Positions 22,858 to 53,728 of a stretch of 64,000 nt of DNA are shown here, piece after piece. Under the pieces are notes generated by a model that saw nothing but the letters and a program-made list of their open reading frames with translations, made no database searches and was not told where the DNA came from. The stretch is from assembly GCA_045646605.1 (NCBI GenBank), contig JAZRLA010000002.1, positions 15,940 to 79,939 on the forward strand, given 5' to 3'. Position 1 is the stretch's first letter, and each line of letters starts with the position of its first letter. A program made the translations under genes and the position numbers. Origin of the DNA: Candidatus Enterousia sp. (GTDB taxonomy: Bacteria > Pseudomonadota > Alphaproteobacteria > Rs-D84).

Positions 22858-22933
22858 GTCCCCATAGTTCAATCGGATAGAACAAGTTCCTCCTAAGAAT
22901 TAGATGTCGGTTCGATTCCGGCTGGGGATACCA
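22858..22933 (+). tRNA. tRNA-Arg (anticodon CCT)
   Basis: Manual fold: acceptor GTCCCCA/TGGGGAT; D stem GTTC/GAAC; anticodon stem AGTTC/GAATT with loop CTCCTAA; T arm GTCGG-TTCGATT-CCGGC; encoded CCA. Confidence 0.85.
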
Positions 22934-25275: not shown

Positions 25276-25276
25276 T

Positions 25277-26335
25277 TTATTTCACCAACCTTTGAATTAA
25301 ATTATCAAGAATCAAAATTCCCGCATCTGTTGCGCGAATTCGATTGTCAGATTTGAACTCTATCACATCGGGATTCGATTTTGCAAATTCTATATTAATT
25401 ACTTTTTTTATTGTGTCGTCAATTTTTACACCGCATTGTGTTCGCATACCAGTTATAACACGTTCAATTGCACGTTCCGAATCGGCCAGTTTTTGAAATA
25501 ATTTTCCGCCACCCATTTCTTCGTACCAAACGTTATCAATCAAAATTCGACCTGCGGCCCCGTCACCAATTCCAATATACGGTGCGCCATCCCAAACATT
25601 TTGATTATGTCGGCATTCAAATCCATTTTTTGCATAGTTTGAAACTTCATATCTATTTAGTTCTAATGTTTTTGCAATTGCCGTGTACATTTCCGCCATA
25701 ACCTCATTAGACGGCATTTGTAAATTCATTTTTCCAAATGGTGTGTTTGGTTCAATTGTCAATTCATACATCGAACAGTGCGACAATCCAATTTTATTTA
25801 TTTCATTGCAAGTTTTTATTACATCATCAACAGAATCTTTTGGCAAACCATATATAAAATCAGCTGAAACATTTTTTATTTGTGTCATTGCAATATCAAT
25901 CAAACGACGCGCATCATCGGCATTGTGCGCACGCCCAAGAAATTTCAATTTTTCATCATTAAAAGATTGCACGCCAATCGAAATTCGATTTACACCCGCA
26001 TCAAAAAAATCATGTAAACGATTTGCGTCAATTGTTTTTGGATTTGCCTCTATCGTAATTTCTGCACCATTCGATAATTCAAAATTTTTATGAATTGTAT
26101 TCATTATTTTTGCAAAAATTTGTATTGGCAAAAGCGAAGGTGTTCCACCACCAAAAAAAATTGTTGGCACCGAAATACGCCCCAACAAATCATGCCAGTG
26201 TTTTATTTCATTAACAATTTTTTCGGCATATGAATCCCAATCAGGCTTTGCACAGGCACGTGAAAAAAAAGCGCAATAATTGCATTTTGACATACAAAAC
26301 GGAACGTGGATGTAAATGTTATGCGGCGTTTTCAT
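25277..26335 (-). CDS. hemW: Radical-SAM heme chaperone HemW (HemN-like)
   Basis: CxxxCxxC (CMSKCNYC) near the N-terminus and HemN-family conservation; 352 aa. Confidence 0.85.
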   Translation of the reverse strand: MKTPHNIYIHVPFCMSKCNYCAFFSRACAKPDWDSYAEKIVNEIKHWHDLLGRISVPTIFFGGGTPSLLPIQIFAKIMNTIHKNFELSNGAEITIEANPKTIDANRLHDFFDAGVNRISIGVQSFNDEKLKFLGRAHNADDARRLIDIAMTQIKNVSADFIYGLPKDSVDDVIKTCNEINKIGLSHCSMYELTIEPNTPFGKMNLQMPSNEVMAEMYTAIAKTLELNRYEVSNYAKNGFECRHNQNVWDGAPYIGIGDGAAGRILIDNVWYEEMGGGKLFQKLADSERAIERVITGMRTQCGVKIDDTIKKVINIEFAKSNPDVIEFKSDNRIRATDAGILILDNLIQRLVK

Positions 26336-26444
26336 AACCCCGATATTACAACGGGGATAAAAATCTGCAATAAAAAATGTTAAAACTATTAAAATAGTTG
26401 TTTACAAAATATTGTCGATGTTATAATATCACATTGAAAGTGAG

Positions 26445-27977
26445 ATGATGAAAAGGGGAATAATATCTTTTTTACCGGCGTTGTGGGCCAGTTTTGCTGC
26501 ATTGGCGGCGAATGAAGGTGTGCCGGTTTATTACCAAGATGCGCCGGCAACTAACGCAAATCAGTCGAGTTATGGTGCGTATGCTGATAACGGTTATACA
26601 AAGTATGTTGGAAAGTCTGGTGAAAAACAGGTTGTGGGTACCCGTACGTATTCTTATACAACTGAAAAACGAAATCGTCCAACCCCAAGTATTGAAGAAT
26701 ATGCCGAAAATATCGGCTATGTTGGTGCTGGAACCATGACGGTAAATGGTGTCGGTTTGGCACCGGAACAGGAACGTTCAACACACTTTTATGCCGGATA
26801 TACACGTCGCTTTGCAAATTTTGAATTTAAGTCGGGTGTGAATTCAATACTTGAATGGGATGACATGATTTTTAATGAAATAAATGTTGGTGCCCGTCAT
26901 GTGTTTTCCTTTGGTAATTTTGATATGTTCGGTTTTGCCGATTATGCGTACGGTAAAATGTCAAATGGTGGGCTTTCCATGGATTACGATTTGGAACCAT
27001 ATGATTGGTCGGATCCAGAGTACGGAATTTTCACAATTTCAATGGGGGGACAATCCGGTGATTCGCATCATTTACGCCTTGGAATCGGGGCAAAGCATAT
27101 TTGGAACGTTGGTGGATGGAAATTTTCACCGGTGATTGGATACGAAATTTTCAAACACAATTTGGAAATGTCTGACCATTTATATCCAAACCAGGGAATT
27201 TATTTACCGCTTATGACAAATCTTGGTGAATATGTTTATGGAAATACAGAAGGGGAGTATTATTCATTACCAATTGACGTGTTGCCACCCGATGATTGGT
27301 ACCAGGTTTGTATGGGCCCCGAAGATATAAAAGTTGTGACACAAAGCGGAACATCAATGGGATATGCAACGTATCTTGGTGATGTTTTGCATACAATGGA
27401 TTATGACGAAGAAACGATGGGATACTTGCCTTGGGGTGTTTATGGTGGTGATTGTGTTATTATTGGGGGCGACGGACCGATAAAGGTTGGCGGACTTACG
27501 CACATATATAACACAACATGGAGTGGTTTCTATTTTGGTCTAGAAATAGAAAAACAAATGACACTTGCGGATAAATTGCGTCTGTATTTTCAAGTTGGTA
27601 TGCCAAAGTATTCATCCGAAGGTATATGGCCGAATCGTACGGATTGGCAACAAAACCCAAGTTTTTTGGATGAAGGAACAAATGGTTCCTATACATACGC
27701 GGCGGAATTGGAATATGATGTTCGTATCGCACCGCGGTTACAGTTGGCCTTAAAAGTTGATACGAATTTCTTTCATATTGGAAAGATACCTGGAAAACTT
27801 TACGTTGCCGAATATACTGAATTTGTAATGGATGAAAACGGTCAATATGTACTTGACGGAAATGGGTTACCATATCTACAAACGGTTCCCGCACATACCG
27901 AAGACGTGCAAGAATCATTAAAGTATGCAGATTGGCAATCGTTTGGCGTGCACCTAGGGTTTAAATATTCATTCTAG
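26445..27977 (+). CDS. Outer-membrane beta-barrel protein (510 aa)
   Basis: Signal peptide (…ASFAALAANE). Alternating amphipathic strands rich in Gly/Tyr. C-terminal …GFKYSF. Confidence 0.6.
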   Translation: MMKRGIISFLPALWASFAALAANEGVPVYYQDAPATNANQSSYGAYADNGYTKYVGKSGEKQVVGTRTYSYTTEKRNRPTPSIEEYAENIGYVGAGTMTVNGVGLAPEQERSTHFYAGYTRRFANFEFKSGVNSILEWDDMIFNEINVGARHVFSFGNFDMFGFADYAYGKMSNGGLSMDYDLEPYDWSDPEYGIFTISMGGQSGDSHHLRLGIGAKHIWNVGGWKFSPVIGYEIFKHNLEMSDHLYPNQGIYLPLMTNLGEYVYGNTEGEYYSLPIDVLPPDDWYQVCMGPEDIKVVTQSGTSMGYATYLGDVLHTMDYDEETMGYLPWGVYGGDCVIIGGDGPIKVGGLTHIYNTTWSGFYFGLEIEKQMTLADKLRLYFQVGMPKYSSEGIWPNRTDWQQNPSFLDEGTNGSYTYAAELEYDVRIAPRLQLALKVDTNFFHIGKIPGKLYVAEYTEFVMDENGQYVLDGNGLPYLQTVPAHTEDVQESLKYADWQSFGVHLGFKYSF

Positions 27978-30894: not shown

Positions 30895-32176
30895 AAATTT
30901 ATGTGTAAAACGGCAAATCGGTGATGTCGCGGGTGCAACCACGCGTGGCCACAAAATGGCGATCAGGGGCGGATATATCTATCAAACTTTTCAGGGCGGA
31001 TACACACTGACCCCGACGGGTTGGCGCGTTGTTCATAAAATTGAAAATATTATTCGCGACGAAATGGATAAAATTGATGGCCAGGAAATTTTAATGCCGG
31101 TCGTATGCACCGCGGATTTGTGGCGTGAAACCGGTCGTTACGATGCGATGGCGGTCCTTGCAAAGTTCAAAGGTTCGTCCGGCGCGGACTATGTAATATG
31201 TCCCACGCATGAGGAAGTTGTAACGGACTATGCGCGTTCGGTAATTGGTTCGTATCGTCAGTTGCCGTTTATGCTGTATCAAATTCAAACAAAGTTCCGT
31301 GATGAATTGCGCGTGCGTGCGGGTTTAATTCGAACACGCGAATTTATCATGAAGGACGGTTATTCTTTCCATGAAACCCAAGAAGACCTGGAACGGTATT
31401 ATAAACTTTGCTTTGATGCGTATTATCGCATATTCCGGCGCTGTGGATTAAAGAATATCGTCGATGTTATGTCATCCACGGGCGATATGGGCGGCGCGGT
31501 CGCGCATGAATTCCAACTGGTCAACGAAATGGGCGAAGATACACTTTATATCTGTGATTGTGGTTTTCGCGCGAACAAGGAACTGGAAGACCACCAGGGC
31601 GGGGGCGAAAACGCCGTTTGCCCAAAGTGTGGTAAACCAATGCAAAAGGTTCGCGGCATTGAAATCGGAAACATTTTCCAACTTGGGAAAAAATATACCG
31701 ATTCAATGCACATGACATATACTGCGGCGGACGGCACGGAAAAAACGCCAATCATGGGTTGTTATGGCATCGGTGTTGGGCGCACTATGGCGGCAATTTT
31801 GGAAGAAAGCGCGGACGACAACGGTCCGATTTGGAACATGGAAACCGCACCTTTCGCGGTACAGGTTATCGGCCTTGTGGACAAAGAAAACAAAACTTTG
31901 CCGATGGCGGAAAAAATCTATAACGAATTAAAAAATGCGGGTGTCGATGTTTTGTTGGATTCGCGTGATATTCGCGCCGGCGAAAAGTTTGCGGATGCGG
32001 ATTTAATCGCGGCGCCAATTCGCTTGATTGTGTCGGAAAAAAATCTTTCGCGTAATGTGATTGAGGTTAAGTACCGCGTGAACGATTTTGATATATCAAA
32101 ATTGTCAACGGAATTCAAAATCGAAACTTGTGTTGCGGACACTTTGACCACAATACAAAAGTTGCTACATAAATAA
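30884..32176 (+). CDS. proS: Prolyl-tRNA synthetase, short form without an editing insertion
   Basis: Class II motifs; the N-terminus aligns to the ProRS start (…RGGYIYQ…TPTGWRVVHKIENIIRDEM); 430 aa. Overlaps the olsA stop by 11 nt. Confidence 0.85.
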   Translation: MRIENLCVKRQIGDVAGATTRGHKMAIRGGYIYQTFQGGYTLTPTGWRVVHKIENIIRDEMDKIDGQEILMPVVCTADLWRETGRYDAMAVLAKFKGSSGADYVICPTHEEVVTDYARSVIGSYRQLPFMLYQIQTKFRDELRVRAGLIRTREFIMKDGYSFHETQEDLERYYKLCFDAYYRIFRRCGLKNIVDVMSSTGDMGGAVAHEFQLVNEMGEDTLYICDCGFRANKELEDHQGGGENAVCPKCGKPMQKVRGIEIGNIFQLGKKYTDSMHMTYTAADGTEKTPIMGCYGIGVGRTMAAILEESADDNGPIWNMETAPFAVQVIGLVDKENKTLPMAEKIYNELKNAGVDVLLDSRDIRAGEKFADADLIAAPIRLIVSEKNLSRNVIEVKYRVNDFDISKLSTEFKIETCVADTLTTIQKLLHK

Positions 32177-32193
32177 AAAACAAAAATCAAAAC

Positions 32194-32209
32194 GGGCGCG
32201 GACGCGCCC
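32194..32209. terminator. Bidirectional hairpin terminator GGGCGCG-GAC-GCGCCC
   Basis: Sits between convergent proS (+) and 32252..32746 (-), with an A-run upstream and T-rich downstream. The same hairpin recurs at 22161-22176. Confidence 0.5.
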
Positions 32210-32251
32210 ACTTTGGTTGTATGGATTTATAATATTTTTATCACAATATCA

Positions 32252-32746
32252 TCATTTAACTTCATTCAATATCAAGTAGAAATCTGCGATATGTTCTGGG
32301 CTCATACCATTTAGTAAACTAACCGATGCGACAGAACCGAACGGGGCATAAAAATTGTTATCGAAGTTATAGTATTTACGGATACTATCGTTTATCTTAT
32401 TTTCCAGTGCGGACATTTGCATATGAATCATCATATTCCAAACTTTTTCTTGGATTTCATCATATTTGTAATCATCAAACCTGTAATTGTCCCAAAAATA
32501 ATTCAATATCTGTTCTGCTTGCGATGCTTCTAATTCTTTTATGCTTTCTGGAAAATTGTAACGCGGATGCGAATTACGGTATATATCCAGCTTTTCTTGA
32601 TTTACACCATACGCATTTATTCGTGCGGTATTATTGTCGGTTTGTGTGTTTTCATATTCAAGTATTTTATTAACAAAATCACTACGCCTATCGGCAACAG
32701 CAACCATTGGGACCAGCAATAATAATACAAACACTAACTTTTTCAT
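32252..32746 (-). CDS. Secreted hypothetical protein (possible periplasmic partner or immunity protein for the upstream GH108 protein)
   Basis: Signal peptide MKKLVFVLLLLVPMVAVA. AT-rich codon usage. Start overlaps the stop of the 32779..33636 gene by 4 nt. No known domain. Confidence 0.55.
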   Translation of the reverse strand: MKKLVFVLLLLVPMVAVADRRSDFVNKILEYENTQTDNNTARINAYGVNQEKLDIYRNSHPRYNFPESIKELEASQAEQILNYFWDNYRFDDYKYDEIQEKVWNMMIHMQMSALENKINDSIRKYYNFDNNFYAPFGSVASVSLLNGMSPEHIADFYLILNEVK

Positions 32747-32778
32747 ACACTTATTATTGCAGGATATATACAAGAAAA

Positions 32779-33636
32779 TCAATATCTATTTGTACGATTT
32801 GTCCATCCGTTGCCATATTTATCCCATCCGGGTAAATCCTTTAAGTATTCTATTCTGTTATCTTTTAAATCTTGCATAAAATCATCGATTTTATCGGTTG
32901 GAATACTGTTTAGTGCATCTATGGTTTTATCACCAATTTTCCCATCAACTTTTAAATTTTCGCCCATTGAATCATTTAGTATTTCTTGGACAAGTTTACC
33001 AACGTTTCTGAAATTACTCATAACACCCATATCAAATATAGCATTTGCAATACGGTCATCTTCTATATCACTAATACGACGGTCATCGTAGAAATTTTCC
33101 CCGTATATTTGTCTTGCCTGATTATTTGTTAAATCTTTTACCGCGTCCGGAAAGTTAAAGTCAGGGTGTTCCGTGTTATATTTATTTAGTGTCGGTTGGG
33201 TTATGCCAGAATTTGTGGGTTGGTCTATCTTATTTGGGTTATCAACATATCCGCCTTCTTCCGCCATAGTTTTACGAATTATATTTTGCTTTCGTTTATC
33301 AACGATCGGGTCATCATTATCATCCAGTTCTAGTTCTTCTATCCAACAACGGCAATTTAGATGATGTGGATGTTCCGGGATATCTTCTTCAGTTTCATAA
33401 ATAGTGCCGGAAAAACTTAGGCAATCATCACAAGTTTTTTCATCTTTTTCTGTATGCCAACACCACGCTCTTCTTATTGTTATACTGCGTCCGGTTGCAT
33501 CAATCGTGCTGTTGCCATATTTATTTTCGAAATAATTTTGAACTCGTCTTGTAACATTTTGGTGTTCTGGATTGCTAGAATTTGCATACGCATCACTTTG
33601 CATAAGGTTTAATATATTTTCTGGTATTTTGTTCAT
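32779..33636 (-). CDS. Mu F-like N-terminal segment fused to GH108 lysozyme and a PG_binding_3 peptidoglycan-binding domain
   Basis: N-terminus …TCDDCLSFSGTIYETEEDIPEHPHHLNCRCWIE… (HPxxNCRC signature of the Phage_Mu_F/SPP1 gp7 family). Middle …EEGGYVDNPNKIDQPTNSGIT…LTNNQARQIYGENFY… (GH108). C-terminus …DGKIGDKTIDAL…GWDKYGNGWTNR (PG_binding_3). Confidence 0.7.
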   Translation of the reverse strand: MNKIPENILNLMQSDAYANSSNPEHQNVTRRVQNYFENKYGNSTIDATGRSITIRRAWCWHTEKDEKTCDDCLSFSGTIYETEEDIPEHPHHLNCRCWIEELELDDNDDPIVDKRKQNIIRKTMAEEGGYVDNPNKIDQPTNSGITQPTLNKYNTEHPDFNFPDAVKDLTNNQARQIYGENFYDDRRISDIEDDRIANAIFDMGVMSNFRNVGKLVQEILNDSMGENLKVDGKIGDKTIDALNSIPTDKIDDFMQDLKDNRIEYLKDLPGWDKYGNGWTNRTNRY

Positions 33637-33779
33637 AATTTATCCTTTTGTTAAATAAAAAATCCGCTAAAAAGCGGACAAAAAAATGACACAAATGTGT
33701 CTTAAAACCAAGAGACATTTTATCATAAAAAACCAAAAAAATCAAGATGATATGTTATATCTCCCACGCCCGTTTTATA

Positions 33780-34349
33780 TCAATCTTTAAACAATATATC
33801 CATTATCGTATCAAATCTTTCTTTCAATTCTTTTTGCGATTCGGGACTTAGTTTTCGATAATCGCGCGCCAATTTGTTTTTAACAAATCCTTTTCCTTCC
33901 GGTATCGACAAATTCATTTTGTTATACGCCAAACTAAACAAAGATGGGATGTTATCAAAATGTGCAATAGCATCCGCATCGGCAAGAATTTGTTCTTCCG
34001 CCGTGTTGCGTGCGTCACTTTTACTGCCCCGATGGTGTAAAACGCATTTTTCAACCAAATCAATTTTTTCGGCCGGATATCCAAGTTCGGATAGTATCGA
34101 ACGTGTCATTTTCGCACCGTATATTTCATGTTCTTCGCGTGGACCAAATTCCGCGGCCATTGCCATATCGTGGAACAGTGCCCCCAGTTCGCAAACTTCA
34201 ACATCCGCACCGCGTTTAACCGCCAAATCATGCGCGTTTTGAAAGACATATTTTATATGCTCGTTCCAAAAATCATATCCGTCTTTTTCAAAAGATTTCT
34301 GGGTATATTCCAATAATTTGGCTTTTACGATTTCAACAATGTTTTGCAT
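33780..34349 (-). CDS. HD-domain phosphohydrolase
   Basis: H…HD motif (…ALFHDMA…), later His/Asp residues (…HH…DADAIAH…); 189 aa. Confidence 0.65.
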   Translation of the reverse strand: MQNIVEIVKAKLLEYTQKSFEKDGYDFWNEHIKYVFQNAHDLAVKRGADVEVCELGALFHDMAMAAEFGPREEHEIYGAKMTRSILSELGYPAEKIDLVEKCVLHHRGSKSDARNTAEEQILADADAIAHFDNIPSLFSLAYNKMNLSIPEGKGFVKNKLARDYRKLSPESQKELKERFDTIMDILFKD

Positions 34350-34351
34350 GA

Positions 34352-35104
34352 TTAATATTTCCTTTGATTTCCAAAAACAGGCATAGATACATTTTTTACA
34401 ATGTTTATAAAATTAGTTGTGGTATATTCAATCCCTGGATCGATTTGTTTGTTCTGACCTTTATTAAAAATATACCAAGGTCTTGTTCCAACAATTTTTA
34501 CTACCTTGCCATCGGTATATAAACTATCTTCTTCTGGTAATGCAATTACCGGCTCATGCATGGAATATTGTGTTAAATATTCTGTGGCTTTTTTGTGATG
34601 TTCCGCGTCTTGATTTGTGTAATGTGCGGTAAGTGAAAAACCAAATAATGAATTAAAACCGCGTGTATCTTTTAATTCAACATTGTTTGTATCCATATAG
34701 CTAATTGCTTCAATATCTTTGCCGAATATTGCCGCCCCAGCACTTCCACCATAAACCAACCCGCCGTTAGCTGTATATTCTTTTATTCGTTCAAACGCAC
34801 CACTGTCTTTTAACAGTTTTAATAGTTTATAAGTGTTTCCACCACCAATAAATATAGAAGAATAATTTGATAAATTTTTTTCTGAAATTTCGTCGGCGGA
34901 TTGTATAACTTCGATTTCGCCATGTTTAATATTTTTAAATTCACGAACCAAAAATTTTTTACAATTTTCATAGCCGGCATCATAATGATTCCAAGCCAAA
35001 GGAATGTATAAAATTGGTTTTTGCGAATCAATCAAACTTTCGAACAATTTATTTGTTATAGTGGTTTTATCTGCGCTGCCACCACCACCCAGTATAATAG
35101 CCAT
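34352..35104 (-). CDS. Peptidase S51 family (dipeptidase E / cyanophycinase-like)
   Basis: …ILGGGGS… N-terminus, GGGNTYKLL and the nucleophile elbow GGSAGAAIFG. Start taken at MAIILGGGG; the ORF-track extension overlaps parC. Confidence 0.7.
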   Translation of the reverse strand: MAIILGGGGSADKTTITNKLFESLIDSQKPILYIPLAWNHYDAGYENCKKFLVREFKNIKHGEIEVIQSADEISEKNLSNYSSIFIGGGNTYKLLKLLKDSGAFERIKEYTANGGLVYGGSAGAAIFGKDIEAISYMDTNNVELKDTRGFNSLFGFSLTAHYTNQDAEHHKKATEYLTQYSMHEPVIALPEEDSLYTDGKVVKIVGTRPWYIFNKGQNKQIDPGIEYTTTNFINIVKNVSMPVFGNQRKY

Positions 35105-35133: not shown

Positions 35134-37404
35134 TTATTTTCCAAACTTCCCGCTTCGTGGAAAACCGACGGGGATTGTGCGGCCCTGGGTTGCGCGCCGG
35201 CCGACCCACGGCGTCCAATCGTCAAGTTTCGTTGTTCCGCGCCCAGTTGTCCAACCGAACCCGTCCGCCGCGTTAAAGAACATCACGTCCAAAACATACG
35301 TCCGTTCGGCATTGTATTTCTGTAAAATCACACCCTTGCCACGAACCATTTCCGGGATTTCGGTTGCCGGAAAAATCAAAATCTTGTCATTTGAACCGGA
35401 CATCGCAACCGTGTCACCCGTGACCCGAACACAGAACGTTGCGGGATTCGCATCATCGACATTCATAACCTGTTTCCCAGTGCGCGTTTGCGCCAAACAG
35501 TTTTCACCCGCAACAATAAATCCGTTTCCATGCCGCGACACCAACAAATATTTCGCGGACATATCCAAAACGAATGCGTTCACAATTGCTTCTTCGGCGC
35601 CGATATCAACCATCATACGCACCGATTCACCAAACCCGCGCGCCGACGGCAAATCATTTGCGGCCAACGTGAACATGCGCCCTGACGCACCAAACAGGTT
35701 TATTTTATCGGTGGACATCGCGTGAAATGCAAATTGCAATTCATCGCCCTCTTTGAATTTCAAATCAAGTGCATTCAAATCCATATGCCCCTTGGCCGCG
35801 CGAATCCAACCCATTGTGGACAAGATTATGGTCAACGGTTCTTTTTCGATAAATTCTTCGGCATTTACGGTGATTTCTTCGGTCTGTGCCGCCCAAGTTG
35901 TGCGCCGCCGCCCAAGTGCGGTCTTTTTATCATATTGCTTTTTAATATCCGCGAACCAGGCCTTTATCTGATTGTTCTGAATTTCTTCATCTTGCAACAA
36001 CGCAACCAATTGTTCGCGTTCCGCACGCAGGTTTTTATCTTCGCGCCGAATTTCCATTTCTTCCAATTTACGCAACGCGCGCAGGCGGGTGTTCAAAATC
36101 GCCTCTACCTGAACCTCGGTCAATTTAAATTCCGCCATAAGCACGGCCTTTGGATCATCTTCGGTCCGGATAATTTCAATCACGCGGTCAAGGTTCAGAT
36201 ATACAATCAGCAATCCGCCCAAAATTTCAAGCCGTTTATCGATGTTGGTCAACCGCCACCGCGACCGCCGGCAAAGAACATTTTTCTGATGCCGAATAAA
36301 TTCGGTCAGCACATCGCGAATCCCCATCACACGTGGCGCGCCGTTTGAATCGATAACATTAAAGTTCATATTAAACCGATATTCCAAATCGGTCAGGGCG
36401 AACAAATGCGCCATCATTTTATCCGCGGGCACATTGCGACTTTTTGGTGTAATGACAATGCGAACATCGGTCGTCGATTCATCGACGATATCATCAACCA
36501 GTGGCAATTTCTTTGCGTCAATCATTTCGCCGATTTGCTCAACCAACTTTGATTTAATAATGCCGTACGGGATTTCGGTAATTACAACCTGGTATCCACC
36601 GCGGTCAAGTTCTTCGATTTCATAGCGCGCGCGAATACGGAATGCACCCTTGCCGGTTTCATAGTTTTTAACAATCGTGTCGAAATCGTCAACAAGGATG
36701 CCACCGGTTGGAAAATCCGGCCCAATCATCTTTTTCATAATTTGCGCGGTTGTGGATTCCGGTTTATCAACCATAAGGGTCAGAGCATCGCAAACCTCCG
36801 CCACATTATGCGTCGGGATATTCGTCGCCATACCGACCGCAATACCCATGCCACCGTTCGCAAGCAAATTTGGAAACGCACCCGGCATAACCACCGGTTC
36901 AACCGTTGTGCCGTCAAAGTTCGGCATCATATCGACACTGTCTTCGTCAATGCCGTCCATAATCAGCATTGCCGCCTCGGTCATCTTGGATTCAGTATAA
37001 CGATATGCCGCCTGGGGGTCGCCGTCGATATTTCCAAAATTCCCTTGGCCATCAATCAGCGGATAACGCACGGAAAAATCCTGCGCAAGTCGCACCATCG
37101 CGTCATAGACCGACGAATCGCCGTGCGGGTGATAGTGCCCAAGCACATCACCAACAACGGTCGCACATTTGCGAAACGCCGCGGCGGGCGATAATTTTTG
37201 CCGCAACATAGAATACAAAATGCGCCGATGCACGGGCTTTAAACCATCGCGCACATCGGGCAGGGCGCGCGACACAATCGTGCTGACCGCGTACGACAAA
37301 TACCGCGTGGACAGCGCGTCCGCCAATTGTTGTGAATCAATTCTTTCGATTATTTCTTTACTCATAACGACATGAAACATAGAACATTTAGAAAAAAATA
37401 ACAA
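35134..37404 (-). CDS. parC: DNA topoisomerase IV subunit A
   Basis: GyrA/ParC N-terminal domain with the catalytic Tyr context (…[10 protein letters not shown]…) and …HPHGDSS… 743-756 aa without a GyrA box. The true start is probably an internal Met (MFHVVM/MSKEII, 37365-37380). Confidence 0.85.
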
Positions 37405-48375: not shown

Positions 48376-49185
48376 CTAAAAACATTTACTATGGCAACTG
48401 TAAAGTGTCATCGGTGGCAATGTGGCAAGGACGGTTGTTGCAAAAAGTTTTCCTTGTTCGGGATTGTCTTTCAAACATTTCTGTAAAGCCGGGTTTTCGT
48501 ATAATACATTGGCGGTCACTGCAACCGTAAATGTTTCTTTGGCATCTTTACCGGGAATTGTTTCCAATGTTCCGTCGCAACATAATTCTTTACAACGTTT
48601 GCGTATATCAGCGGTTGTAAAGATATTTTGCGAACCGGTTTCACTTAAAACCGGGATAAGGTAATTTTTATCACAATTGCCCAATGCGGAATACCCGTCT
48701 TTTTGTTTTTCCAATATCGCGCCTTCCCAATTAAAATTATATAAATTATGCAGGACAAAGCAATCTGTATCCTTGGTCCAACATTTACCTTCGTGAAAGT
48801 TTTTATCCGTATCGATGCATACGCAACTTTTGCCATCCCATTTTGCAATATCTTTGTGCTTTTCGCAATCTGCTTGGACCTCGGCAAGTGTTTTTACTTT
48901 TTCTTGTCGCCGCAAAAGTTCATTTTTTGCCGACGTGATTTGTGCATCCATTTCATTATTTTTATTTTTTAATGCAATGTTCCCAACGACACCTGCCGCG
49001 GTAAGTCCAAGTGTTGAAATTCCCGCAACTTTGAATCCGGTGACTTTTTTTGTACATTGCTCTAATGTTGCAAGTTTTTGATTTTTTTCATCCACCAATT
49101 GCCTAATCAGTGTTTCATCGCTAACCGCATTTACATTATCAATCATACCAAACATCGCAATTATAATATAAGAAATTTTCCGCAT
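48376..49185 (-). CDS. Secreted protein with a C-terminal Cys-rich domain (269 aa)
   Basis: Signal peptide. N-terminal module paralogous to 49197..49568 (coiled segment, then the Gly-rich hydrophobic stretch VAGISTLGLTAAGVVGNIAL). About 16 Cys in the C-terminal half. Confidence 0.55.
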   Translation of the reverse strand: MRKISYIIIAMFGMIDNVNAVSDETLIRQLVDEKNQKLATLEQCTKKVTGFKVAGISTLGLTAAGVVGNIALKNKNNEMDAQITSAKNELLRRQEKVKTLAEVQADCEKHKDIAKWDGKSCVCIDTDKNFHEGKCWTKDTDCFVLHNLYNFNWEGAILEKQKDGYSALGNCDKNYLIPVLSETGSQNIFTTADIRKRCKELCCDGTLETIPGKDAKETFTVAVTANVLYENPALQKCLKDNPEQGKLFATTVLATLPPMTLYSCHSKCF

Positions 49186-49196
49186 GTTTATATCCC

Positions 49197-49568
49197 TTAT
49201 TTTGAAATGTGTTCGGCCGCATCCGTCGCCGTGGTTGTGGCATTGACTTGGTTTTTTAATTCGTTGAATTCCGCCTTTTTATCAGACAAAGTATTCGCCT
49301 GTTTTATTGCGGCGACACCGGTTCCAACGATTCCAATACCGCCAATGACCGTGGCGGCAATCCAAGATTTGCGTTGCTGTTCACAAAGGGCGATATCATT
49401 GTCAATCGTTGCAATGTCTTCGCGCAGTGTCGCGATAATTTCGCTGGGGCTCATGCCGGCGGCATTTGTTACATAATTATCAACCGCTTTTGGATTATGA
49501 TGCTTAACGGCGGCGGTGGCCCCATTACAAACCATCACCATAAATAAAATAAATAAAGTTTTTTTCAT
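49197..49568 (-). CDS. Secreted hypothetical protein (123 aa), paralogous to the N-terminus of 48376..49185
   Basis: Signal peptide MKKTLFILFMVMVCNGATA; …IAATVIGGIGIVGTGVAAIKQ… segment. Confidence 0.55.
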   Translation of the reverse strand: MKKTLFILFMVMVCNGATAAVKHHNPKAVDNYVTNAAGMSPSEIIATLREDIATIDNDIALCEQQRKSWIAATVIGGIGIVGTGVAAIKQANTLSDKKAEFNELKNQVNATTTATDAAEHISK

Positions 49569-50196: not shown

Positions 50197-50281
<85 letters not shown>

Positions 50282-50374
50282 CCAAATTTTCAAGCGCGCT
50301 TTGCAAGCGTTGAAAATTTGAGTGCCGCGGCGGAGTTCGCAAAGCGAACGAAGACGAGCAAAATTCCAGATACT

Positions 50375-50485
50375 TTAATACATCGGATAATCGCGCAGCG
50401 GCCCATTCGGCCGTGACAGGTCAGATTTAACCCCGCACGCACACAGCACAAACGCACACAACAAAATTAAAACAATTTTTTTCAT
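50375..50485 (-). CDS. Very small hydrophobic ORF (36 aa), possible secreted peptide or lipoprotein
   Basis: MKKIVLILLCAFVLCACGVKSDLSRPNGPLRDYPMY. Signal-like N-terminus with a weak lipobox. Low confidence. Confidence 0.2.
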   Translation of the reverse strand: MKKIVLILLCAFVLCACGVKSDLSRPNGPLRDYPMY

Positions 50486-50589
50486 AATTCACCATTAAAC
50501 GACACTTTATAATACATAAAAAACACCGAAATGTCTATTGTTTTATGTTGTCTACTTTTGGGATACACTTCATTGTGTGTTAAGGACAA

Positions 50590-50712
50590 GTCTCGCTGCA
50601 GCGTAAGCGAAAGTGGATGGCAGGGCCACTCAAGCAATTCACGAGTTGATTTTATTCGTGAATTGTTAATATTCGGAAAAGATATTAAAGTGTTTTTGAA
50701 TAACTATATTTA
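50590..50712. repeat. Island structured repeat, copy C1 (variant 5' hairpin, att-like core and module 2)
   Basis: …TCGCTGCAGCGTAAGCGA…TGGCAGGGCCACTCAAGCAATTCACGAGTTGATTTTATTCGTGAATTGTTAATATTCGGAAAAGATATTAAAGTGTTTTTGAATA. Confidence 0.6.
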
Positions 50713-50738
50713 ACCACCTGTTATGTAATAACTTTGTT

Positions 50739-51428
50739 TTATAAGTGTAATTGGTTATCCTTGTATTTTTCTTTTATTAATTGTGCGTATCTTAATGCAG
50801 CACATTTTATCAGGGATTCGCATTTTGTATAACCATCTTTTAACATTTGTTGTGCAGGACATACATCAGGTGTTGAAACTTGGCATTTTTCACAAGAAAT
50901 ATTTTGTTTTGGCATACAATCGTGCGTATCCCATGGTTTGTGCCACTTACATCCAGCACAAGCACCAAGAACACTCATCGAATCAAAAATATATAATTGA
51001 TCCAAGCGTTGTGATTGTATATTAACTTCCACGCAAGAACCAACAAGAAACGAGGGACCGTAAAATGTTAAAACATATGGGACAGAATATTTTTGCAACC
51101 TTTTAAGCATTTCGCATTCTTGCACTTCGTTCGCTGTACGATCTATCAATTTCTTGCAACATGTATTTCCACGCATACCATCAATAGAAATGAATCTTAT
51201 TTCCGTAAAATGTTGCAATTGTTCACGAAAACAATATTCGTTTTTCCATCCCAATACAGGTTTTTGTAAATTTTCTTTCGAAACATGAATACTTTCTGTA
51301 TCTGTCGAGCGATTATATTGTGCTGTGTATACCATATCTTTTAATGCAGGACATTGCTGTGATTCTATATAACACCCATAGCATTGAAAGGCGATACAAT
51401 TATCTTTTGTATAAAATATTCTTTTCAT
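50739..51428 (-). CDS. Cys-rich hypothetical protein (229 aa), possible Fe-S or Zn protein
   Basis: About 24 Cys, including CIAFQCYGC (Cx4Cx2C) near the N-terminus, CC, CAGC and CEKC. No signal peptide. AT-rich codons. Confidence 0.5.
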   Translation of the reverse strand: MKRIFYTKDNCIAFQCYGCYIESQQCPALKDMVYTAQYNRSTDTESIHVSKENLQKPVLGWKNEYCFREQLQHFTEIRFISIDGMRGNTCCKKLIDRTANEVQECEMLKRLQKYSVPYVLTFYGPSFLVGSCVEVNIQSQRLDQLYIFDSMSVLGACAGCKWHKPWDTHDCMPKQNISCEKCQVSTPDVCPAQQMLKDGYTKCESLIKCAALRYAQLIKEKYKDNQLHL

Positions 51429-51484
51429 ATTAAAAACTTTTACATGATTATAATGTATGTGTTCCCAATATCAATATAAAAAAA

Positions 51485-51690
51485 GTTCGTAAATCAGCAA
51501 AACGGTCTCTGTTTTCAACACCTAACTTTCGAACTCACAGAACTATTGGAAATCCAATCAAAAAACCACCCGTTTGGGTGGTTTGAATTTTTGGCAGGGC
51601 CATCTGTGCAATTCACGAGTTGATTTGATTCATGAATTGTTGTTGTTTGGAAAAGAAATTAAGATTTTTTTGAATAAATACTATCATATC
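51485..51690. repeat. Island structured repeat, copy C2 (module 1 + TGGCAGGGCC + module 2)
   Basis: AGTTCGTAAATCAGCAAAACGG…CTTTCGAACTCACAGAACTATTGGAAATCCAATCAAAAAACCACCCGTTTGGGTGGTTTGAATTTTTGGCAGGGCCATCTGTGCAATTCACGAGTTGATTTGATTCATGAATTGTTGTTGTTTGGAAAAGAAATTAAGATTTTTTTGAATA. Confidence 0.65.
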
Positions 51691-51727
51691 TGAACTATGT
51701 TATGCAAATTATTGACATTTATATATT

Positions 51728-52603
51728 TTGTATTATATTATAAACGACAATAAGAGAAAAAACAAATTGGCAATTCAAATAGATTTTGACCGAGCCTTGC
51801 ATGATATGGAATATCATGATTCAACAACACGGGTAACCTTTGGGCCGTATTCGCCGACATATCTTATCGCAACAGATGAAGATGCAAACCAAGATATCAA
51901 ACGTTATATGTATAACGGAAAAGATAAAAAATACTGCGAAAAAGTTCTGACCGTATCGGCATCTGGCGACCATCCATTATTTTGTAAAATGTATGGTGCT
52001 AAACAAATTACTACTTTTGATATAACATATGCATCCAAAATAATTATGGATATTAAAACACTGGCTATAAAAAAGCTTACTTTTGACAACTATTGGCAAT
52101 TATTAAAAGATTTATGGAACAATCCGAACATTACATCTGTGTCAAATTTTGAGAGTATTATGCAAAAATTAGATTCAAACGAACAAAAATATATTCATAC
52201 AATGGATAGAAAATTCGCATTATTTAACTTTGGAACACCGCCAGGTTATTATCATGTTTCGGATACAAATAACCAAAAATCACTTTACGAAGGATTACAT
52301 CTGGCTGATTTGCCAACATTTCCTTTTATTTGGACTGATATTGAAGACCTGGACGCAAAATTGGGTGATAATACATATGATTTTATACATTTATCCAATA
52401 TCTTAGATTTTGTAAATGATGACATCAAAGTATCTGTTTTAAAACAATTGACGCAAAGATTGAATTATGGTGGTCGTATATTAATGCGCAGAATAAATGG
52501 CAATTATCAATTAGTCGACATATGTCAAAACATAGAAAAACAATCAGATGATTTAGGCTTTGTTAATCGTTGGGAACAAATGATTTTATTAAAATGCAGA
52601 TAA
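51728..52603 (+). CDS. Hypothetical protein (291 aa); weak resemblance to the DUF3419/BtaA-like SAM-binding family
   Basis: …VLTVSASGDHPLF… and …IHLSNILDFV… resemble DUF3419 signatures. AT-rich. The assignment is tentative. Confidence 0.5.
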   Translation: MYYIINDNKRKNKLAIQIDFDRALHDMEYHDSTTRVTFGPYSPTYLIATDEDANQDIKRYMYNGKDKKYCEKVLTVSASGDHPLFCKMYGAKQITTFDITYASKIIMDIKTLAIKKLTFDNYWQLLKDLWNNPNITSVSNFESIMQKLDSNEQKYIHTMDRKFALFNFGTPPGYYHVSDTNNQKSLYEGLHLADLPTFPFIWTDIEDLDAKLGDNTYDFIHLSNILDFVNDDIKVSVLKQLTQRLNYGGRILMRRINGNYQLVDICQNIEKQSDDLGFVNRWEQMILLKCR

Positions 52604-52620
52604 TCAAAACAATTTAATAG

Positions 52621-52815
52621 TTCGTAAATGTATGAAACGGCGGCGGTTTTTGATATCCGACTTACGAACTCACAGAACTATTGGAAATCCAATCAAAAAA
52701 ACACCCAAACGGGTGTTTTTGATTCTTGGCAGGGCCATCTGTGCAATTCACGAGTTGATTTGATTCATGAATTGTTGTTGTTTGGAAAAGATGTTAAGGT
52801 GTTTTTGAATACTAC
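52621..52815. repeat. Island structured repeat, copy C3
   Basis: Same two-module architecture as C2. The module-1 terminator hairpin reads CACCCAAACGGGTG here, against CACCCGTTTGGGTG in C2 (same stem, loop reverse-complemented). Confidence 0.65.
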
Positions 52816-52868
52816 CAACTTGACTTTGTAACGATTTTTGCTACTTTCTCAAATGAAAAGAGATATAT

Positions 52869-53273
52869 ATGTCAGATATTTCAAATAAAGAATACATCAC
52901 TATAAATAAAGATGGGGTTTTTGTTGGTGGAGAACCCGCAATTTATTATCGTGGCAAAAAAATGCATTCACAAAGTTTGACACAAACATATTTCCTTTAT
53001 ATACAAGAGAAATTTCCAGTAATTGAAGAAGTTCACGTCTTATCATCAAAAACCGAAGCCAAACTATACAATATAAATGAAAAGCCATCACAACAAGATG
53101 GAAAACATACATGGTGTCGTGTAAAATTTACTAACGGTAAAATGGGATATTGGACACCAAATTTAACGTGGAATAATGCGGTAGAAACCTATTGCTATTG
53201 TGTTGCTGATATTGGTTGGGATGCTGAATTTACCAAAAAATTATTCTTACCAAAAAACGAGAATGAAAGATGA
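52869..53273 (+). CDS. Hypothetical protein (134 aa)
   Basis: Clean ORF. Sigma70-like promoter (TTGACT-17-TACTTT) and RBS upstream. No recognisable domain. Confidence 0.5.
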   Translation: MSDISNKEYITINKDGVFVGGEPAIYYRGKKMHSQSLTQTYFLYIQEKFPVIEEVHVLSSKTEAKLYNINEKPSQQDGKHTWCRVKFTNGKMGYWTPNLTWNNAVETYCYCVADIGWDAEFTKKLFLPKNENER

Positions 53274-53277
53274 TAAA

Positions 53278-53412
53278 TTAAAAAGTTTGTAAATTGGCAA
53301 AACGGTGGCTATTTTTACTACACAACTTACGAACTCGTGAAAGTGTTGGAAAACAAAGAAAAATCGGGTATAAAACCCGATTTGTTTATTTTGGCAGGCC
53401 TACTCGGATTTG
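53278..53412. repeat. Island structured repeat, copy C4 (module 1 only) ending in a 21-nt copy of the tRNA-Glu 3' end
   Basis: GTTTGTAAATTGGCAAAACGG…ACTTACGAACTCGTGAAAGTGTTGGAAAACAAAGAAAAATCGGGTATAAAACCCGATTTGTTTATTTTGGCAGGCCTACTCGGATTTG. The final 21 nt match the 3' end of the tRNA-Glu gene (20 of 21 identical). Confidence 0.65.
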
Positions 53413-53554
53413 TTTGCATACGCTCACCACTCGTAAGACTCGAACTTCGCTATGCTCGTTCTCGTCAACTATCGTGTGAACCGCAGTTCAAATTCGCCAA
53501 GGTAAACCAAAAGGATAAAAAACAACACCCAAAGCGGGTGTTGTTCCTTATCCT

Positions 53555-53629
53555 TGGCAGCCCTACTCGGATTTGAACCGGGATTCTCGCCTTGAAAGGG
53601 CGGTGTCCTAACCATTAGACGATAGGGCC
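53555..53629 (-). tRNA. tRNA-Glu (anticodon TTC)
   Basis: Reverse complement GGCCCTATCGTCTAATGGTTAGGACACCGCCCTTTCAAGGCGAGAATCCCGGTTCAAATCCGAGTAGGGCTGCCA is close to E. coli tRNA-Glu. Anticodon loop CTTTCAA. Confidence 0.85.
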
Positions 53630-53650
53630 AAAACGAAAGCACAAAAAAAC

Positions 53651-53728
53651 TGGCGGGATTGACGGGGCTCGAACCCGCGACCTTCTGCGTGACAGGCAGA
53701 CGCTCTAAACCAGCTGAGCTACAACCCC
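53651..53728 (-). tRNA. tRNA-Asp (anticodon GTC)
   Basis: Reverse complement GGGGTTGTAGCTCAGCTGGTTTAGAGCGTCTGCCTGTCACGCAGAAGGTCGCGGGTTCGAGCCCCGTCAATCCCGCCA. Anticodon stem TCTGC/GCAGA with loop CTGTCAC. Confidence 0.85.

Follow-up and report, generated by a model that had tools for sequence, protein, structure and literature searches.

How did three unrelated genes come to stand between copies of one repeated element, in an island bounded by tRNA genes? The question is raised by a 64,000-nt stretch of Candidatus Enterousia sp. (contig JAZRLA010000002.1), which is called the window here and in which the tRNA genes were placed by ARAGORN and Rfam. Four full or partial copies (C1-C4) of an element of about 200 nt separate the three genes, from tRNA-Leu at one end to tRNA-Glu and tRNA-Asp at the other. 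This layout had been described in a first-pass annotation made from the sequence alone, and it was confirmed by ARAGORN, Rfam and a repeat finder. The lower GC content of the region was also borne out (0.305-0.33 at 51-53 kb vs. about 0.43-0.45 in the flanks). A full copy is composed of an inverted repeat (module 1), a terminator hairpin, a core with TGGCAG, and a right half (module 2). The two full copies, C2 and C3, share 85% identity across 196 nt, and about zero chance matches to the long repeat patterns are expected in shuffled sequence. Pattern searches found no further copies in the window beyond 50.6-53.4 kb. Exact look-ups of three proteins of the window gave no record.

The region is very probably a cassette-accretion platform at a tRNA attachment site. 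The features that define tandem accretion at tRNA genes are present, at the granularity of single genes. The architecture of the array, its anchoring at tRNA-Glu, the displaced copies of the tRNA end and the independent shuffling of the cargo were all observed directly. The first-pass annotation had suggested a cassette-like or tandem-accretion array, and the relatives indeed vary by single gene-plus-repeat units.

Distribution of the element

A degenerate pattern of the core plus module 2 was scanned over one genome per species, and 75 loci were found (handles with the prefix L). Nearly all of them belong to Candidatus Enterousia or to uncultured alphaproteobacterial metagenome-assembled genomes (MAGs); the exceptions among the specifically labelled records are L029 (Bacteroidales) and L062 (Roseateles). 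Most loci come from the gut of ruminants or horses. Genomes of the Enterousia lineage (order Rs-D84) have a size of 0.75-1.0 Mb (PMC12306168). The comparative data are almost all MAG contigs cut to 8-kb blocks, and the arrays often end the contigs; the MAG contigs of this lineage break at the locus because of the repeated junction. When metagenomes were searched by synteny via Lgt, arrays were recovered only in L085 and L098, and most contigs broke at the array. No match of the element was found in viral contigs, and no description of this array was found in the literature searched.

Profile searches located 179 module-1 and 168 module-2 copies, all co-oriented. In the MAG blocks the copies are clustered in tRNA-Glu-linked arrays and not dispersed, and a check of their placement found them only at gene boundaries inside arrays. 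Where a block holds the tRNA, tRNA-Glu(ttc) has the array on its 3' side, oriented as in the window. In loci oriented like the window, tRNA-Glu is directly followed by the terminator and module 1, and the array abuts tRNA-Glu in 35 loci or junctions. At the distal end, a tRNA-Leu on the same side of the array is also present in L021, L047/L048 and L049.

A full-length module-2 match occurs in the record labelled Bacteroidales (L029, contig DASTGN010000004.1, 903 kb). It could reflect misbinning, chimeric assembly or inter-phylum transfer.

The core as a tRNA-Glu attachment site

The core was given in the first-pass annotation as TTGGCAGG(G/C)CC. It is real, but the annotation missed that it is complementary to the 3' end of tRNA-Glu: this tRNA ends with CTGCCA, and TTGGCAG is the reverse complement of these bases. 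Of the 22 positions of the C4 core (53391-53412), 21 are the same as in the tRNA-Glu 3' end. In minus-strand direction, each junction runs module 2, ...CTGCCA, terminator, module 1, which is the layout of a tRNA-Glu gene, its terminator and then module 1. The terminator hairpin is bidirectional, and its minus-strand position is that expected of a tRNA terminator. Since the core is the tRNA-Glu 3' end and the junction has the layout of the tRNA, the repeats are of the attachment-site type.

Displaced tRNA-Glu 3' ends of 6-22 nt were found within the arrays, at 53391-53412 of the window and at 32 more junctions; an arrangement like that of C4 is also present in L098, L004, L041 and L073. In a census of the junctions with a T-run and TGGCAG, 94 continue into module 2, 35 into the tRNA-Glu gene, and 32 into CCCYA-type displaced tRNA ends of varied length (the 22-nt end of the window was counted apart). 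These 32 ends are attached to island-type ends, which are described below, or to other conserved modules. The unrelated junction types (island-type, GC-rich and module 3) all join at exactly TGGCAG. Moreover, one MAG (L002) has a second array at another tRNA, tRNA-Glu(CUC), with a 19-nt duplicate of the 3' end of that tRNA.

The tRNA-Glu(CUC) array of L002 (oriented 1450-1900) also has, on its other strand, a tRNA-like fragment, GGGTTCGATCCCC...ACCA. The idea that the minus strand of module 2 and the core forms a tRNA-like RNA, or one that ends in CCA, was considered and rejected; no acceptor or T-arm pairing was seen, and ARAGORN reported none.

Cassettes and their independent movement

There are 164 spacers between the elements (median 706 bp; up to eight per 8-kb block). 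Nearly all have a single open reading frame (ORF), which covers a median of 88% of the spacer and lies on the plus strand in 105 cases and on the minus strand in 50. The 155 cargo proteins fall into 87 families. The commonest Pfam assignment is the GNAT acetyltransferases (about 15 of 150), followed by nucleotidyltransferases, NERD, DUF3419, hydrolases and D-Ala-D-Ala peptidases, and further by HAD, GDSL, kinases/APH and deaminases. A few cargo proteins are defence-related.

The cassettes, which are single genes, assort independently. Pairs of cargo from different genomes with 80% identity or more, which are not phylogenetically independent, have the same orientation relative to the repeats in 46 of 46 cases and the opposite one in none, and their neighbouring cargo is homologous in 0/13 comparisons on the left and 0/18 on the right (0/31). 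For example, the 291-aa cassette of the window is about 99% identical to a cassette of L007 with different neighbours. A check for cassette-level variation in relatives gave the same picture: L021 has flanks 94-97% identical to those of the window with entirely different cassettes between them, and in the metagenomic L098 the tRNA region is 95% identical and the cassettes are again entirely different. The family of the third cargo protein of the window (134 aa) is present in 7-9 further arrays with constant orientation. The 291-aa protein matched the DUF3419 and methyltransferase families (E = 4e-10), and its homologues are found in L024 and L055; its true start may be downstream of the TTG at 51728. 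No Pfam match was found for the 229-aa cargo protein.

Some array positions hold something other than an ordinary one-gene cassette. At the distal array end of L098, the closest relative (550-1915, window orientation), a helix-turn-helix (HTH) gene overlaps a 363-aa ORF, a pair that from its sequence is probably an XRE-type antitoxin with a HipA-like toxin; the window counterpart, after tRNA-Leu, is non-coding DNA only. At least three conserved non-coding modules of 140-240 nt, without an ORF or Rfam match, occupy cassette positions: module 3 (window 53413-53553; L098, L004 and L073), a GC-rich module (L007, L066 and L098), and a third that begins TTTCGCTCGGCAC... (L008, L011 and L069). Module 3 is 95% identical in L098 and homologous in L004 and L073, and no consistent ORF or Rfam match was found for it. 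The GC-rich module and module 3 were also read as possible recombinase tails, and neither gave a consistent ORF. As they lack an ORF and an Rfam match, the non-coding modules may represent RNA genes or what is left of the ends of other elements. Some cassettes with unrelated cargo share one more 3' module, CACCCACAATnAATACGAAC...AAAAGGTTAGATTTCTAACCTTTT, in front of module 1 (for example L002, L006, L012, L042, L057, L007, L015 and L098:3018-3075).

Module 2 and the serine recombinases at tRNA-Glu

Judged from its pattern of variation, module 2 looks like coding sequence and not like a conserved hairpin. The hairpin AATTCACGAG...TCATGAATT, which had been proposed as a conserved feature, is perfect only in this window, and its second arm is often non-complementary elsewhere. 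In 113 of 121 copies the plus-strand frame from TGG CAG stays open for 28 codons; the other plus-strand frames do so in 35 and 5 copies. The peptide reads WQGHLCNSR-[TVA]-[DN]-x-[IM]-[HRK]-[DE]-LL-x-FGK-[ED]-[IV]-K-x-FL. The entropy per codon position is 0.51/0.37/0.78, and 43% of the single-base codon differences are synonymous (other frames: 24% and 14%). Conservation at the level of nucleotides is also seen in the first 27 nt of module 2. The frame has no conserved start codon, and upstream of it the frame through the terminator and module 1 is full of stops. In a collection of 5.8 billion proteins, no long protein ends in the module-2 peptide; the only matches were ORF calls of 44-104 aa over the element.

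Two candidate origins or functions of the element were rejected. Module 1 and the terminator showed no significant similarity to a recombinase 3' end, and stops lie upstream of TGG CAG. Sites like those of dif/Xer or Hin/Gin were looked for in the element by eye, and the spacing and conservation did not fit.

Islands with serine recombinases occur at the same tRNA-Glu site. In L159, a 9.3-kb island lies between tRNA-Glu and array remnants, bounded by copies of the tRNA end as an 11-nt direct repeat (TGGGGCTGCCA). It has a small resolvase at the far end and, at the tRNA end, a 559-aa large serine recombinase with Resolvase, Recombinase and Zn_ribbon domains. The same arrangement is found at tRNA-Glu in L161 and L162. 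The large serine recombinase has 13 homologues or protein clusters (43-100% identity), all of which cross TGG CAG in the same frame. Eleven of the 13 end in WQP[QH][PS]D[SL]NR[CD]SRLERAVS, the antisense translation of tRNA-Glu; in P0131 and P0138, WQP across TGG CAG is followed by a different continuation. Because the attachment site lies inside the recombinase gene, the enzyme must have one C-terminus in the integrated state and another after excision.

The antisense strand of tRNA-Glu encodes the last ~16 codons of the large serine recombinase ORFs. In the locus of P0131 (L163:7600-7662), the sequence TGG CAG CCC AAG TTA... runs into non-tRNA DNA, with no tRNA within 10.5 kb, and this case may be a secondary integration site or an excised form.

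At the far ends of the islands, TGGCAG is followed by a tail of 33-42 codons in the same frame, such as WQPQLDDFRT...FLNS. The tails read WQPQLDDFRTLVLHDYDEIVRNINALEDFLNSLDG (stop) in L159, WQSQYDNFRT... in L009 and WQPQIDNIRTEISLYEAEIMETLDLLEEFLNDLKH (stop) in L018. They differ synonymously (e.g., CGA/AGA and GAC/GAT). Since the island-end tail is in frame, an excised recombinase would acquire it. Module 2 and the island ends are homologous and share this reading frame: 17 of the first 27 nt of module 2 are shared (L058 and L072), the motif W-Q-x-[QH]-L-x-[ND]-x-R-T is common to both, and the real scores of a module-2 peptide HMM on the island tails were reached by 0, 0 and 7 of 500 shuffles. 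Moreover, in L018 an island-type end heads an ordinary one-gene cassette. The first-pass annotation had recognised no mobile-element end in this region; this needs revision in part, as module 2 is homologous to an end of the serine-recombinase islands. A degenerate island-end pattern run over all loci gave no match, the pattern being mis-specified, and no match of the large serine recombinase was found in viral contigs.

Small resolvases were also found near the arrays. The resolvase seed match in L009 and L074 is a 189-aa serine recombinase next to an RloB/AAA_21 pair, ~270 nt from a junction of the form ...terminator-TTTTTGGCAG|TCTCAATATGACAAC. Small resolvases of 189-191 aa with RloB and AAA_21, a candidate defence module, are located right next to the TGGCAG junction, at L009:529-1152, L009:4910-7574, L074:5458-6027 and in L156/L157. 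L009 has two resolvase genes, one on either side of an array of two cassettes; its contig is 10 kb long and could be an episome.

Proposed mechanism

The full model is tandem accretion of integrase-less single-gene cassettes at tRNA-Glu, serviced in trans by a large serine recombinase, and belief and doubt in it are about evenly balanced. The junction on the plus strand consists of the ~52-bp inverted repeat, the bidirectional terminator, TGGCAG, a module-2 box of ~60 nt, and an A/T-rich promoter region that goes along with the downstream gene. It may be an attP-like site and a putative recombinase substrate. The right arm (module 2) might be derived from, or shared with, the far end of the tRNA-Glu-specific serine-recombinase islands, and the left arm would supply a replacement terminator for the tRNA. 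For circular or incoming cassettes, the site at the 3' end of tRNA-Glu would be the recombination partner, with the exchange at TGGCAG, and the crossover probably falls within TGGCAG. Each insertion would regenerate the tRNA end and terminator and would leave an attP-like junction in the array. Because the left arms are all alike (terminator, T-run, TGGCAG), insertion would rebuild an attB-like site at the tRNA; because an attP-like junction is left each time, the units would pile up in one orientation. Insertion would be repeated next to the tRNA, and units would be lost or exchanged singly. The cassette mover would be the tRNA-Glu-specific large serine recombinase of the larger islands in the same lineage, and module 2 may be translated as a tail of this enzyme.

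A more far-reaching reading is rather doubtful. It takes the region as an integron-analogous, independently evolved gene-capture platform, in which the tRNA-Glu end might have the role of attI, the junction that of attC, and a serine recombinase might act in trans. The C-terminal tail of the recombinase would be swapped by the downstream DNA (the tRNA antisense strand, the island end, or the 'tail exon' of module 2). Such a swap could set the direction of the reaction, and the captured genes would bring their own terminator and promoter.

Several results weigh against the accretion model with a trans-acting enzyme. As the first-pass annotation had stated, no recombinase is present at the locus; none was detected in the array region or elsewhere in the window by phmmer with XerD, IntI1, lambda Int, Cre, gamma-delta resolvase, IS608 TnpA and RAYT as seeds, whose sensitivity is limited. 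The 8-kb blocks of the 75 species loci contain only the small resolvases of L009 and L074. The large serine recombinase family looks rare, with its 13 protein clusters, and no recombinase fused to a module-2-type tail was found in the 5.8-billion-protein collection. The normal reaction of large serine recombinases is limited to attP with attB, and a clear left half-site was not seen. The repeats in MAG contigs can be misassembled. The cassette boundaries, which are taken up next, tell against the model as well.

A weak RAYT match in the window (36553-37191, E = 0.0076) was dismissed because it overlaps a large opposite-strand ORF (35134-37404). Over ~800 kb of loci, the Y1 transposase (IS200/IS605 TnpA) and RAYT seeds gave no other match.

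Cassette boundaries and alternative explanations

One exact cassette boundary was sought from near-identical cassettes of different genomes and had to be given up, as the breakpoints vary. The left end of the near-identity blocks lies -7 to +69 nt from the core, with no fixed position, and the right end +14 to +83 nt from the start of module 1. Linkage to the cargo is limited to the promoter-proximal tail of module 2, which is at least 90% identical in 46% of same-cargo pairs vs. 0% of random pairs. Between module-1 arm 2 and the module-2 box, the centre of the element shows partial homogenisation within arrays; near-identical central segments make up 21-29% of the pairs within a locus vs. 1-6% between loci. 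The segments of the element combine as mosaics, and the cargo-linked sequence often stops at the module-1 arm. These variable breakpoints, the homogenisation and the mosaics indicate that homologous recombination or gene conversion acts on the junctions, and it blurs any site-specific breakpoint.

Exchange mediated by RecA through the repeats is therefore a serious rival, although as the whole explanation it is rather doubtful. Cassettes would be swapped by RecA-dependent homologous recombination, with the ~200-nt junction as portable homology and no dedicated recombinase. A circularised or imported unit would recombine Campbell-style, the junction would be a terminator-plus-promoter insulator for foreign genes, and the tRNA-Glu location and the module-2 frame would be relics of an ancestral integrative element. 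The breakpoints of the shared blocks, which lie at the edges of conserved stretches, the mosaic and homogenised segments, and the lack of a recombinase beside most arrays in the phmmer searches are consistent with this explanation. The expression features also agree with it. The terminator is bidirectional, and an extended -10 promoter (TGnTAWAAT) follows 55 of 159 module-2 copies, so the gene insulation suggested in the first-pass annotation holds as far as terminator and promoter are concerned, but is not supported in the form of a two-module structured RNA. However, RecA-mediated exchange leaves unexplained why all arrays are located at tRNA-Glu, including the second one at tRNA-Glu(CUC), and why displaced tRNA 3' ends of differing length all begin from TGGCAG. 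It also leaves unexplained that unrelated junction types join at exactly this hexamer, and that the codon-periodic frame of module 2 is in phase with the serine recombinase ORF.

It is unlikely that the junction is mainly an expression or RNA element (a 3'-UTR hairpin, terminator and promoter) that was copied with genes arriving otherwise and has no role in recombination; a small RNA or micro-peptide would perhaps be made from module 2. The terminator and promoter are present, the coding-type substitutions and occasional short ORF calls over module 2 could suit a peptide, and module 1 does carry the inverted repeat that had been proposed for it. Its outer stem is 87.6% paired, and three of 11 pairs are changed on both sides; the covariation is weak, with a score reached by 3 of 500 shuffles. 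However, the RNAalifold consensus structure is almost nil (-1.3 kcal/mol, no compensatory pairs), and an Rfam search of the window and 16 array loci with gathering and E-value thresholds returned tRNAs only. The two-module structured RNA of the first-pass annotation is not supported, given the empty Rfam result and the protein-like conservation of module 2. A module-2 peptide would also lack a conserved start codon and an upstream open frame. One third of the cargo genes run against the module-2 promoter and have a promoter themselves, and the expression view does not account for the tRNA-end repeats and the cassette-by-cassette shuffling.

GNAT-rich cargo is typical of integron cassettes. A divergent integrase-less integron (a CALIN), or an unknown tyrosine recombinase for which the folded module-1 hairpin would be an attC-like site, is nevertheless highly improbable: co-oriented repeats do separate single diverse genes rich in GNAT proteins, module 1 is an imperfect inverted repeat of ~52 nt with a conserved A.C mismatch, and the cargo-linked sequence often ends at its arm, but the seeds for IntI1, XerD, lambda Int and Cre, whose sensitivity is limited, had no match even at E <= 10 among the six-frame ORFs of the window and L001-L098 (~800 kb), the arms AGTTCGTAA/TTACGAACT, judged by their sequence, do not fit R'' RYYYAAC or R' GTTRRRY, the cassettes have their own promoters and a third of the genes are inverted, the unit junctions coincide with the tRNA 3' end at TGGCAG, and integrons are reported as entirely absent from Alphaproteobacteria (PMC9668308).

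Comparison with known systems

The array is not a canonical integron, and the earlier statement that it is neither an integron attC array nor a CRISPR array stands. An adjacent integrase gene is not required for a CALIN, and the present arrays likewise persist without one. They share with integrons and CALINs the single chromosomal platform, the co-oriented repeats, the independent assortment of single diverse genes, and the abundance of acetyltransferases. However, no IntI and no attC consensus were found here, and the anchor is the tRNA-Glu 3' end instead of attI. The junction of ~200 nt carries a terminator and often a promoter, so that the cassettes are self-expressing; genes may be inverted, the host is alphaproteobacterial, and the candidate enzyme is a serine and not a tyrosine recombinase.

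Tandem accretion at tRNA genes includes the integrase-less CIMEs beside integrative and conjugative elements (ICEs). As in those systems, insertion here is at a tRNA 3' end whose direct repeats flank the units, integrase-less units keep att sites and could move in trans, and new units stack next to the tRNA. A cognate integrase is present in some elements at the same site, namely the islands of L159, L161 and L162, and in none in this window. The differences are in scale: the units are single genes of ~0.5-2.4 kb and not multi-kb islands, at least eight units may occur in 8 kb, and the arrays extend across dozens of species. The tRNA identity is often only the 6-nt TGGCAG.

With the attP/attB systems of large serine recombinases, the arrays share the islands with Resolvase, Recombinase and Zn_ribbon domains at the same tRNA-Glu site and the short identity at the junction core. 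The module-2 box also matches an attP half-site in length (~27 bp), and it is homologous to the ends of the islands. The classic enzymes, however, move one large element and form no arrays, whereas here cassettes occur without the enzyme, and the ORF spans the attachment site with a C-terminus that varies with the integration state. An attP inside a coding gene is found in the SSV1-type integrases, which are split by integration, and in mycobacteriophages with integration-dependent immunity. In these cases, too, integration alters the C-terminal coding of the gene that spans attP; but they are tyrosine integrases or repressors of single prophages, whereas the alternative tail (module 2) is here present at every cassette junction.

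REP/BIME, BOX, Correia and RUP elements are modular intergenic repeats dispersed around the genome. They resemble the present element in that they are composites of ~100-200 nt at gene boundaries, with hairpins and promoter or terminator activity. The present copies, in contrast, occur only in one or two tRNA-Glu-linked arrays and flank variable genes.

Feature coordinates and the surroundings of the array

The coordinates are collected in Table 1. The short hairpin after tRNA-Leu is possibly a collapsed remnant of the module-1 inverted repeat, as suggested by its similarity to the two module-1 arms.

Table 1. Features of the array region. Positions refer to the window unless a locus is named.
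Feature	Position	Strand	Basis or remark
tRNA-Leu(tag)	50197-50281	+	ARAGORN and Rfam; distal (left) array boundary
Short hairpin AGTTCGCAAAGCGAAC	50334-50353	.	Read from sequence; one arm of inverted repeat I6
Copy C1: core TGGCAG and module 2, without module 1	50618-50706	+	Repeat family D2; nhmmer module-2 match
C1 including tail reading frame WQGHSSNSRVDFIRELLIFGKDIKVFLNNYI (stop)	50618-50713	+	Module-2 peptide list
Cargo 1: 229-aa Cys-rich protein	50739-51428	-	ORF list
Cargo 1 putative promoter TTGATA-N17-TATAAT	~51440-51475	-	Read from sequence
Copy C2, full	51480-51680	+	Repeat finder and pattern searches
C2 left half	51480-51591	+	Repeats D1, D3, I4
C2 module-1 inverted repeat AGTTCGTAA...TTTCGAACT	51484-51535	+	Within left half
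C2 bidirectional terminator hairpin	51562-51584	+	After module-1 inverted repeat
C2 right half: core TGGCAG and module 2, tail frame WQGHLCNSRVDLIHELLLFGKEIKIFLNKYYHI (stop)	51592-51693	+	
Cargo 2: 291-aa DUF3419/methyltransferase-like protein	51728-52603	+	ORF list and family match
Copy C3, full	52615-52815	+	Repeat finder and pattern searches
C3 left half	52615-52726	+	
C3 module-1 inverted repeat	52619-52670	+	
C3 terminator hairpin	52698-52720	+	
C3 right half: core TGGCAG and module 2, tail frame WQGHLCNSRVDLIHELLLFGKDVKVFLNTTNLTL (stop)	52727-52831	+	ORF 52628-52831
Cargo 3: 134-aa protein, function not assigned	52869-53273	+	ORF list
Copy C4: module 1 and core only	53280-53412	+	Repeats D3, I15
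C4 module-1 inverted repeat	53284-53335	+	Within 53280-53390
C4 terminator hairpin	53352-53392	+	
Displaced duplicate of tRNA-Glu 3' end (22 nt, att-type direct repeat)	53391-53412	-	Repeat D5
Module 3, conserved non-coding filler	53413-53554	.	Between displaced tRNA end and live tRNA-Glu
Module 3 own terminator	53511-53555		
tRNA-Glu(ttc)	53555-53629	-	ARAGORN and Rfam; 3' end is the anchoring attachment site
tRNA-Asp(gtc)	53651-53728	-	ARAGORN and Rfam; adjoins tRNA-Glu, context only
Large serine recombinases of other loci	L159:1529-3208, L161:10001-11626, L162:4790-6415		Proteins P0129-P0141

The array is flanked by housekeeping genes. One flank holds NrdD, NrdG and L33, and the other has Lgt, a Bax1-I protein and an aminoacyl-tRNA synthetase. 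Close to the array but outside it, beside the L33 gene, two adjacent minus-strand genes (48376-49568) encode secreted-looking proteins of 269 aa (Cys-rich) and 123 aa, for which no Pfam match was found. Further low-GC stretches (0.34-0.38) with several minus-strand ORFs are located at 24000-27000 and 32000-35000 of the window, and a tRNA-Arg(cct) gene (22858-22933) lies just upstream of the former.

Biological significance

These genomes of 0.75-1.0 Mb (PMC12306168) keep one fast-turnover locus for single accessory genes. The collection held there includes acetyltransferases, nucleotidyltransferases, kinases, peptidases and defence genes. The conserved junction provides a specific probe for the accessory gene pool of this uncultured gut lineage in metagenomes. 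The tRNA-Glu-specific serine integrases with a state-dependent C-terminus might be a potential tool for genome engineering. If the proposed mechanism is right, cassette-by-cassette gene capture would have arisen outside the integron/IntI system, via a tRNA site and probably with a serine integrase. It would then also exist in a class from which integrons are reported absent (PMC9668308).

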